From Escherichia coli O127:H6 str. E2348/69 (lineage in GTDB: Bacteria > Pseudomonadota > Gammaproteobacteria > Enterobacterales > Enterobacteriaceae): a stretch of 64,000 bases of DNA. The position numbers were made by a program, and so were the translations under genes. Positions within the stretch are counted from its first letter, which is position 1, and each line of letters starts with the position of its first letter. Positions 58,093 through 58,713 of the stretch are shown in pieces. A model generated the notes under the pieces. The model was not told the origin of the DNA and did not search any database. It saw only the letters and a program-made list of their open reading frames with translations. The stretch is from NCBI RefSeq assembly GCF_000026545.1, contig NC_011601.1; one strand, given 5' to 3'.

Positions 58093-58161
58093 AGGAGTTC
58101 CACTTTTCTTAGATTTTCAACACAACGTTATCGCTAGTTTGCCAGGCTCGATGTTGACCTT

Positions 58162-58206
58162 CCTCATCCTGCGGGGGATTAGGCAGGGAGGAGTTGCGGG
58201 GATGAG
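58162..58206 (-). promoter_or_regulatory. MalT boxes of the malPQ promoter
   Basis: cctcatcc (reverse complement GGATGAGG, 58162-58169) and ggggatgagc (58197-58206) match the MalT box consensus GGGGA(T/G)GAGG; located 70-115 bp upstream of the malP ATG on the minus strand. Confidence 0.65.
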
Positions 58207-58713
58207 CAAGGAAATGTGATCTCGACCACTTAAAGCTAGTGCAAACCACAGGATTAGCAGCAAATCAATGCTATACAGCGCAGAAAATCTGTATCTAAGT
58301 GCAAAAAATGGCCGTTGCGTATTTTCAAAAAGCGGAAGGTAACTCTATAAATTAAGTAAAGGGGTGAAACAGTTTCATAAGTAAAATATCAAGTGTGCTC
58401 CATCTCATTCTTAATAGATTTATTAAGATCATCTTTTTAGATGGCACTTTCATCAGAAATGAAGAAGAAACCCTTGCTTAAATGAAACTGATGAACATAA
58501 GGAAAATACCGTACAACCCAGTATTCACGCTGGATCAGCGTCGTTTTAGGTGAGTTGTTAATAAACATTTGGAATTGTGACACAGTGCAAATTCAGACAC
58601 ATAAAAAAACGTCATCGCTTGCATTAGAAAGGTTTCTGGCCGACCTTATAACCATTAATTACGAAGCGCAAAAAAATAATATTTCCTCATTTTCCACAGT
58701 GAAGTGATTAACT

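Follow-up and report, generated by a model that had tools for sequence, protein, structure and literature searches.

The malP–malT spacer of Escherichia coli E2348/69: two activator-dependent promoters and a search for a gene or further control elements between them

Introduction

What does the DNA between the divergent genes malP and malT contain besides the promoters at its two ends? In Escherichia coli O127:H6 str. E2348/69, this spacer covers 621 bp (58093–58713) of the 64,000-nucleotide stretch of contig NC_011601.1 which was analyzed here as a whole and is called the window below. An earlier note on this DNA had described a malP–malT divergent control region with MalT boxes, which is correct and belongs to textbook knowledge, and a spacer larger than most. 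It is in fact the largest of the ~55 annotated intergenic spacers of the window, the next ones measuring 437, 400, 378 and 363 bp. RefSeq places no annotation inside it in E2348/69, and the same holds for its 611-bp counterpart in K-12 MG1655; a 1001-bp query around it is 100% identical to the E2348/69 record NZ_CP059840.2.

The malP–malT region as a whole is already known, and re-identifying a textbook regulatory region changes little by itself. The explanation which best accounts for the region, and which we consider very probable, is that two separate activator-dependent promoters lie at the ends of the spacer and that its centre is free of genes, further elements of malT control being proposed within it. 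In this explanation, the promoter anatomy is either directly observed or documented, and the role of the central elements is what we infer.

Organization of the spacer

The malP–malT locus was compared across 80 species of Enterobacteriaceae, among which congeneric species are non-independent samples. The spacer measures 570–640 bp in nearly all of them, with near-invariant ends on the malP and malT sides and a variable centre. The features of the E2348/69 spacer are collected in Table 1.

Table 1. Features of the malP–malT spacer and its flanking genes in E2348/69 (positions in the window).
Feature	Position	Strand	Sequence	Remarks
malP	55699–58092	-		gene at left of spacer
malP 5' leader	58093–58129	-		~37 nt; predicted start
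MalT-box-like 10-mer	58162–58171	-	CAGGATGAGG	points toward malP; proximal box
MalT-box-like 10-mer	58174–58183	+	GGGGATTAGG	
MalT-box-like 10-mer	58185–58194	+	AGGGAGGAGT	
MalT-box-like 10-mer	58198–58207	+	GGGGATGAGC	
Second CRP-like site	58212–58233		AAATGTGATCTCGACCACTTAA	adjoins MalT boxes upstream; ~-93.5 of predicted malP start
AT-rich central spacer	58234–58570			337 bp, non-coding; 35% GC vs 52% for window
Central module	58326–58395	+		~70 bp; includes TCTATAAATT (58344–58353), dyad TGAAACaGTTTCA (58365–58377) and TAAAATAT
11-bp indel	58506–58516		ATACCGTACAA	in E2348/69, missing from K-12
CCAG motif (CCAG-N4-CAYGC)	58518–58530	+	CCAGTATTCACGC	~-131 of malT start
Terminator-like hairpin and T-run	58527–58551	+ only	ACGCTG-gat-CAGCGT, then CGTTTTAGGT	hairpin at 58527–58541
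malT CRP site	58573–58594	+	AATTGTGACACAGTGCAAATTC	centre 58583.5 = -70.5
CRP core	58576–58591		TGTGAcacagtGCAAA	within malT CRP site
malT -35	58619–58624	+	TTGCAT	published PmalT description
malT -10	58642–58647	+	GACCTT	17-bp spacer from -35
Alternative malT -10	58647–58652	+	TATAAC	published PmalT description
malT leader	58654–58713	+		60 nt; starts at A 58654; weak ribosome-binding region
Leader block	58655–58682	+	TTAATTACGAAGCGCAAAAAAATAATAT	almost invariant in 80 species; AU-rich, probable H-NS/StpA target
malT	58714–61419	+		gene at right of spacer

Taken one by one, the short patterns involved carry little information: the CRP-core pattern occurs 26 times in 64 kb for 27 expected and the MalT-box pattern 64 times for 71 expected, and neither is therefore rarer than chance would have it. 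What supports the MalT boxes and the malT CRP site as real is the clustering of four boxes within 46 bp, their conservation in the 80 species and the published geometry of the malT promoter.

The malT promoter and its leader

The malT promoter is cAMP-CRP-dependent and has been described as a class I promoter with CRP at -70.5, a -35 element matching the consensus at 3/6 positions and a -10 element matching it at 2/6, A-11 and T-7 being kept, followed 5 bp downstream by a second -10-like box, TATAAC, numbered -7 to -2 (PMC10882989). In addition, malT is a genomic-SELEX target of CRP (PMC3105977). These elements can be placed on the E2348/69 sequence, where the CRP centre at -70.5 and the numbering of TATAAC provide two derivations of the same transcription start, A 58654; the centre of the CRP site thus lies exactly at -70.5, a class I position. 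The site matches the CRP consensus at 14/22 positions, with a TGTGA core, one perfect half and one degenerate half, and the pattern TGTGA-N6-NCAA is kept in all 80 species. The earlier note had located this element exactly, at 58576–58591, and had called it a CRP-like half-site; the position holds, and the element itself is the full, documented and functional CRP site of malT. The long AT-rich leader which the same note ascribed to malT turned out to be a leader of 60 nt, the AT-rich DNA lying upstream of the promoter.

Downstream of the start, the near-invariant block TTAATTACGAAGCGCAAAAAAATAATAT is presumably the Mlc operator, the footprint of which is reported by Decker et al. 1998. Mlc is known to repress malT, and H-NS and StpA to stimulate translation via a leader which is AU-rich and has only a weak Shine-Dalgarno sequence (PMC10882989 and further literature). 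The near-invariance of the block fits both the repression by Mlc and the H-NS/StpA-assisted translation of the leader. The documented parts thus combine as follows: cAMP-CRP bound at -70.5 activates the weak sigma-70 promoter of malT from +1 at 58654, Mlc represses it at a presumed operator overlapping the start, and H-NS and StpA assist the translation of the short leader, which is AU-rich and poorly equipped for ribosome binding.

Two further observations concern this end of the spacer. Among the published Term-seq 3' ends of K-12, one corresponds to position 58715 (K-12 3553086), where it falls on the middle base of the ATG of malT; another lies at K-12 3553411. The former implies that the malT promoter gives rise to a leader-only RNA of ~62 nt, which may reflect pausing, processing or attenuation. 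On the opposite strand, an ORF of 20 aa (58593–58655, -; MVIRSARNLSNASDDVFLCV) which overlaps the malT -35 and -10 elements is intact in all six Escherichia sequences. Since its differences are all non-synonymous, its integrity is explained by constraint on the promoter.

The malP promoter and a second CRP-like site

The malP promoter, malPp, drives malP and malQ, and its dependence on MalT is established. At MalT-dependent promoters, the proximal MalT box, of the type GGGGA[T/G]GAGG, is centred near -37.5 or -38.5 and points toward the start. The MalT boxes that the earlier note had reported near 58162–58206 were recovered as four box-like 10-mers between 58162 and 58207, and the organization in direct repeats of a malPp-type promoter was found: three boxes on the same strand lie upstream of the proximal one, an arrangement kept in 73–77 of the 80 species. 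CCTC[AC]TCC is kept in 79/80 species and at least two copies of GGGA[GT]GAG in 77/80, and from the boxes down to the malP start codon the sequence is strongly conserved throughout the set. The malP start at 58129 was deduced by setting the centre of the proximal box (58166.5) at -37.5, and a check of the box position against this start is hence circular; the deduced start gives a plausible -10 element, CAAACT, at 58136–58141. MalT assembled on the clustered boxes recruits RNA polymerase to this weak promoter, with a predicted start near 58129. Derivatives of malPp serve as MalT-binding DNA (PMC10427625).

Next to the boxes lies a second CRP-like site which had been overlooked in the earlier note. 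It matches the 22-bp CRP consensus at 17/22 positions, compared with 14/22 for the malT site, and no other sequence of the 64-kb window reaches even 16 matches. Its TGTGA-N6-NCAC pattern is kept in 75/80 species, at 113–122 bp from the malP ATG. It is a candidate CRP site, which may act on malP, on malT or on neither. The malPp promoter is regarded as CRP-independent.

The AT-rich centre and its two alleles

Of 5426 complete E. coli genomes, 5423 contain the central spacer, which is single-copy and carries no annotation in the E. coli records sampled. An origin from a repeat or a mobile element was rejected, the sequence occurring once per genome. Between genera, the centre is barely alignable (0.34–0.47 identity). 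Within E. coli, its identity is 0.944, as compared with 0.955–0.967 at four-fold degenerate sites, which corresponds to a similar rate of divergence.

Two lengths of the central spacer, 337 and 326 bp, are both seen in a spread sample of E. coli genomes. The long form with the 11 bp of the indel ATACCGTACAA is common to E. albertii and two other Escherichia species, and the long allele of E2348/69 is the ancestral form. Records carrying the long allele at ≥95% identity number ~1800, and the short allele, of K-12 type, seems to be more frequent. Salmonella is also 11–12 bp shorter in the interval of the indel, as is the locus L007, a record titled Escherichia coli strain SCPM-O-B-8794. The species label of this record looks doubtful: the N-terminus of its MalP is 85% identical to that of E. 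coli, and its spacer is Citrobacter-like.

A conserved module and a CCAG motif upstream of malT

Despite the drift of the centre between genera, a block of ~70 bp can be followed through it. A nhmmer profile built from the block aligned to 58326–58395 finds this module on the same strand in 48–50 of the 80 species, and in alignments anchored on the CRP site it is also visible by eye in Kosakonia, Phytobacter, the Klebsiella oxytoca group, Franconibacter and Siccibacter. Closer to malT, the CCAG of the motif CCAGTATTCACGC is invariant in 37/37 aligned genera or species, and the motif stands 55–64 bp, mostly 58–60 bp, before the TGTGA of the CRP site (52 species).

The module stands at a near-constant distance from the CRP site of malT. 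From the end of the module to the CRP site, 181–188 bp are counted in 46/49 species, with 173 bp in Salmonella and 199 bp in a lineage where part of the centre has been replaced by a repeat; toward the CRP-like site of malP, the distance varies from 62 to 153 bp, so that the standard deviation is 24.7 bp on the malP side vs 3.6 bp on the malT side. With the core GAAAY-N-RTTWC (58366) as the reference point, TGTGA follows after 209–215 bp in 37/40 species, after 198–200 bp in Salmonella and L007, and after 199 bp in K-12, and the two standard deviations become 24.9 and 3.8 bp. As both distances are taken within one spacer and in the same genomes, their contrast is a fair internal control. In the 175 bp from module to CRP site, Escherichia and Citrobacter are 46% identical with only 4 gap positions, shuffled sequences reaching 29%. 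Judging from these alignments, substitutions between the module and the CRP site are almost saturated and the length is held. Where the length does change, it tends to be by ~11 bp, as has occurred in three lineages (K-12-type E. coli, Salmonella and L007). The 209–215 bp range exceeds half a helical turn, which leaves the phasing loose and strict helical phasing unsupported; in ungapped stacks on the CRP anchor, column conservation is weak and positions are good to a few bp.

We read the 337 bp between the two promoters as AT-rich non-coding DNA which carries no gene and yet is not pure filler. We tentatively propose that the centre is protein-binding cis-regulatory DNA attached to malT, the module and the CCAG motif acting as further protein-binding elements of malT control, possibly via a DNA loop or a wrapped complex. 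On this reading, which is possible but somewhat unlikely, malT control reaches ~330 bp upstream of the start, and the module and the CCAG motif are putative sites for a factor that would communicate with the CRP/RNA polymerase complex through such a structure. A loop or wrapped complex would explain why length is held, with changes of at most ~3 bp or of an ~11-bp helical turn, despite the drift of the sequence.

The main competing explanation takes the centre for neutral filler, or for an H-NS-coated insulator, which does no more than space two divergent promoters, the module, the CCAG motif and the length having no specific function. We give it the same weight as the regulatory reading, possible but somewhat unlikely. 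Its low GC content (35%), the poor alignability between genera and the within-species divergence close to that of four-fold sites all agree with it, as does the fact that other lineages tolerate replacement by a repeat element or the presence of a 1.8-kb gene island. Moreover, TCTATAAATT resembles the H-NS high-affinity motif, matching it at 9/10 positions. Opposed to these points are the one-stranded 70-bp block, which a profile detects in at least 48 species, and the invariance of CCAG. Neutrality or a generic insulator is hard to reconcile with the asymmetry in length, the malT side varying with a standard deviation below 4 bp and the malP side with one of 25 bp in the same genomes.

If the centre is indeed attached to malT as proposed, the 11-bp indel of E. 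coli would be a natural one-turn variant, and the distal element could carry poorly explained inputs into malT such as osmolarity or growth phase. The module is dispensable in some lineages, being lost in Trabulsiella, and in one lineage of Escherichia the equivalent of 58418–58545, downstream of it, has been replaced. In the early deletion work of Raibaud and co-workers between 1983 and 1991, both promoters reportedly still functioned in the laboratory once the central DNA had been removed. The comparison of 80 species shows conserved non-coding elements even in a heavily studied region, and the constraint on spacing points to a long-range promoter architecture. Loss or down-regulation of malT has been repeatedly selected in the gut (bioRxiv 10.64898/2026.06.25.730905), so that cis-elements which had escaped recognition, together with two common alleles differing by 11 bp, could be relevant to how maltose use varies in nature. 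In this classic system, modest and testable leads come from three elements: the module, the CCAG motif and the second CRP-like site. A limited literature search, beyond the reach of which most of the classic papers lie, returned no mention of any of the three.

The centre also contains several short palindromes, TGAAACaGTTTCA, TCTTAATAgattTATTAAGA, CATCTttttAGATG and TTCATcagaaATGAA, which lie across 58365–58463 and are conserved within Escherichia. Such palindromes are mildly enriched over shuffled sequences (9 vs 3.4 expected, P ~0.02). They were compared with motifs for Cra, KdgR, MetR, TyrR, CpxR, OmpR and IHF, as well as for NagC/Mlc, the DnaA box, sigma-54, sigma-E, sigma-32 and Dam/Dcm sites, and all of these candidates were rejected on the grounds of wrong spacing or absence of conservation. 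A resemblance to the KdgR box is seen at the left of the module in Enterobacter, Kosakonia and Phytobacter (AATGAAATGnCGTTTC), and Escherichia does not have this sequence.

Search for a hidden gene in the centre

The earlier note had suggested that the spacer might in principle hide a small ORF or an sRNA. Neither is supported in the centre. One of the two candidates is an sRNA of ~190 nt on the + strand, starting after TATAAAT (58346–58352) and ending at the hairpin and T-run of 58527–58551, and we consider it very unlikely. It owes its interest to the hairpin, which is terminator-like on the + strand only and keeps its stem with a variable loop in four of five Escherichia species, among them E. 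albertii and two others, and to TATAAAT, which is invariant within Escherichia. On the other side, a counterpart of the hairpin occurs in only 10/79 species and is absent from the remaining 69, and in Escherichia sp. MOD1 the whole of 58418–58545 has been replaced by a dispersed repeat. A scan of the spacer for consensus promoters and terminators gave counts equal to those of shuffled sequences and no promoter for this RNA, bearing in mind that such a scan fails to pick up even the two genuine promoters of the spacer, which depend on activators. For K-12, the curated set of Term-seq 3' ends obtained in LB at two densities and in M63 glucose (Adams et al. 2021) includes none between K-12 3552400 and 3553085, the nearest being 3553086 and 3553411; these three conditions therefore yield no 3' end in the spacer.

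The structure of the putative transcript points in the same direction. When the two strands of the centre and a candidate 198-nt RNA were folded, the z-scores were unremarkable (-1.7, -0.5 and -1.0), and RNAalifold, applied in 37 species to the 67 nt upstream of the CRP site, CCAG motif included, predicted zero pairs. A permissive Rfam search of the spacer returned chance-level matches only, to eukaryotic snoRNA and miRNA families. What would define an sRNA gene with an intrinsic terminator was thus not found: the hairpin is restricted to 10/79 species, with no promoter match, 3' end, Rfam family or consensus structure to accompany it.

A small protein encoded in the centre, for instance by 58352–58453 (-, 33 aa), 58395–58481 (+, 28 aa) or 58268–58342 (+, 24 aa), is most unlikely: the ORFs do have ATG or GTG starts, and the longest stop-free stretch across species slightly exceeds that of shuffled sequences (58.8 vs 52.3 codons), but each central ORF of at least 20 aa is broken by a stop, a frameshift or the loss of its start in at least one sister species among E. 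albertii, two cryptic Escherichia and E. whittamii. The ORF 58482–58553 is even frameshifted by the 11-bp indel within E. coli itself, and by eye no convincing Shine-Dalgarno sequence precedes the ATGs at 58268 and 58482. No open frame is consistent across 79 species, the longest stretches falling on all six frames without a common peptide. Only ORFs lying over the conserved DNA of the CRP site and the promoter remain open, with changes that are all non-synonymous; a kept start combined with coding-type substitutions, as expected of a small protein-coding ORF, was found for none in the centre.

Comparison with known systems

The closest reference is the malPQ-malT (malA) region of K-12, which is the same locus with the same elements and 98% identity when the flanks are included with the spacer. 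Except for one A in an A-run, no difference is seen in the MalT boxes, either CRP site, the -35 and -10 elements or the Mlc/leader block, while E2348/69 differs in the centre by the 11 extra bp at 58506–58516 and by ~10 substitutions.

At class I CRP-dependent promoters, CRP is centred near -61.5, -71.5 and so on. The malT promoter shares with them its dependence on cAMP-CRP and the presence of one CRP site only, at -70.5, ahead of a weak -35 and a weak -10 element. It departs from the textbook layout in that upstream conservation extends to -131 with the CCAG motif and to ~-330 with the module.

Another point of comparison is the divergent malEp-malKp pair, in which one common nucleoprotein complex of MalT and CRP covering 271 bp activates both promoters. 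Like this pair, malP and malT form divergent maltose promoters with MalT boxes and CRP sites, the malP boxes adjoining a CRP-like site. Unlike it, the malP and malT promoters are ~525 bp apart, and a single common complex is unlikely since anything from 314 to 409 bp separates the two CRP sites, depending on the species.

Finally, two conserved sites separated by DNA whose length is kept and whose sequence is not are reminiscent of operators acting through loops, such as nagE-nagB with NagC, gal, ara and deo. The parallel is incomplete, as the spacing spans a 6-bp range, the central dyads match no identifiable regulator and the distal sites are putative.

Variation of the spacer in other records

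The lineage of Escherichia in which part of the centre has been replaced is represented by Escherichia sp. MOD1-EC7003 (L003 ~2685–2840). There, a dispersed intergenic repeat takes the place of the equivalent of 58418–58545, downstream of the module, with a change in spacer length of only ~15 bp. This repeat, which resembles ERIC, is found at ~85% identity in E. coli genomes, the median copy number being 11.

The spacers of Trabulsiella (L046 862–2636; L052 17–2592) carry inserted genes, coding for Hcp (PF05638), an uncharacterized 292-aa protein and a DUF1240 membrane protein, and in Trabulsiella odontotermitis the inserted genes are repeated as several effector/immunity-like pairs. The Hcp island has displaced the central module in these spacers, which retain the CCAG motif as well as the CRP site.

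In addition, ~45 records labelled as plasmids (e.g. NZ_CP081785.1) contain a portion of the malT region of the chromosome, which in some of them ends at the edge of the record. These records are probably artefacts of assembly or labelling.
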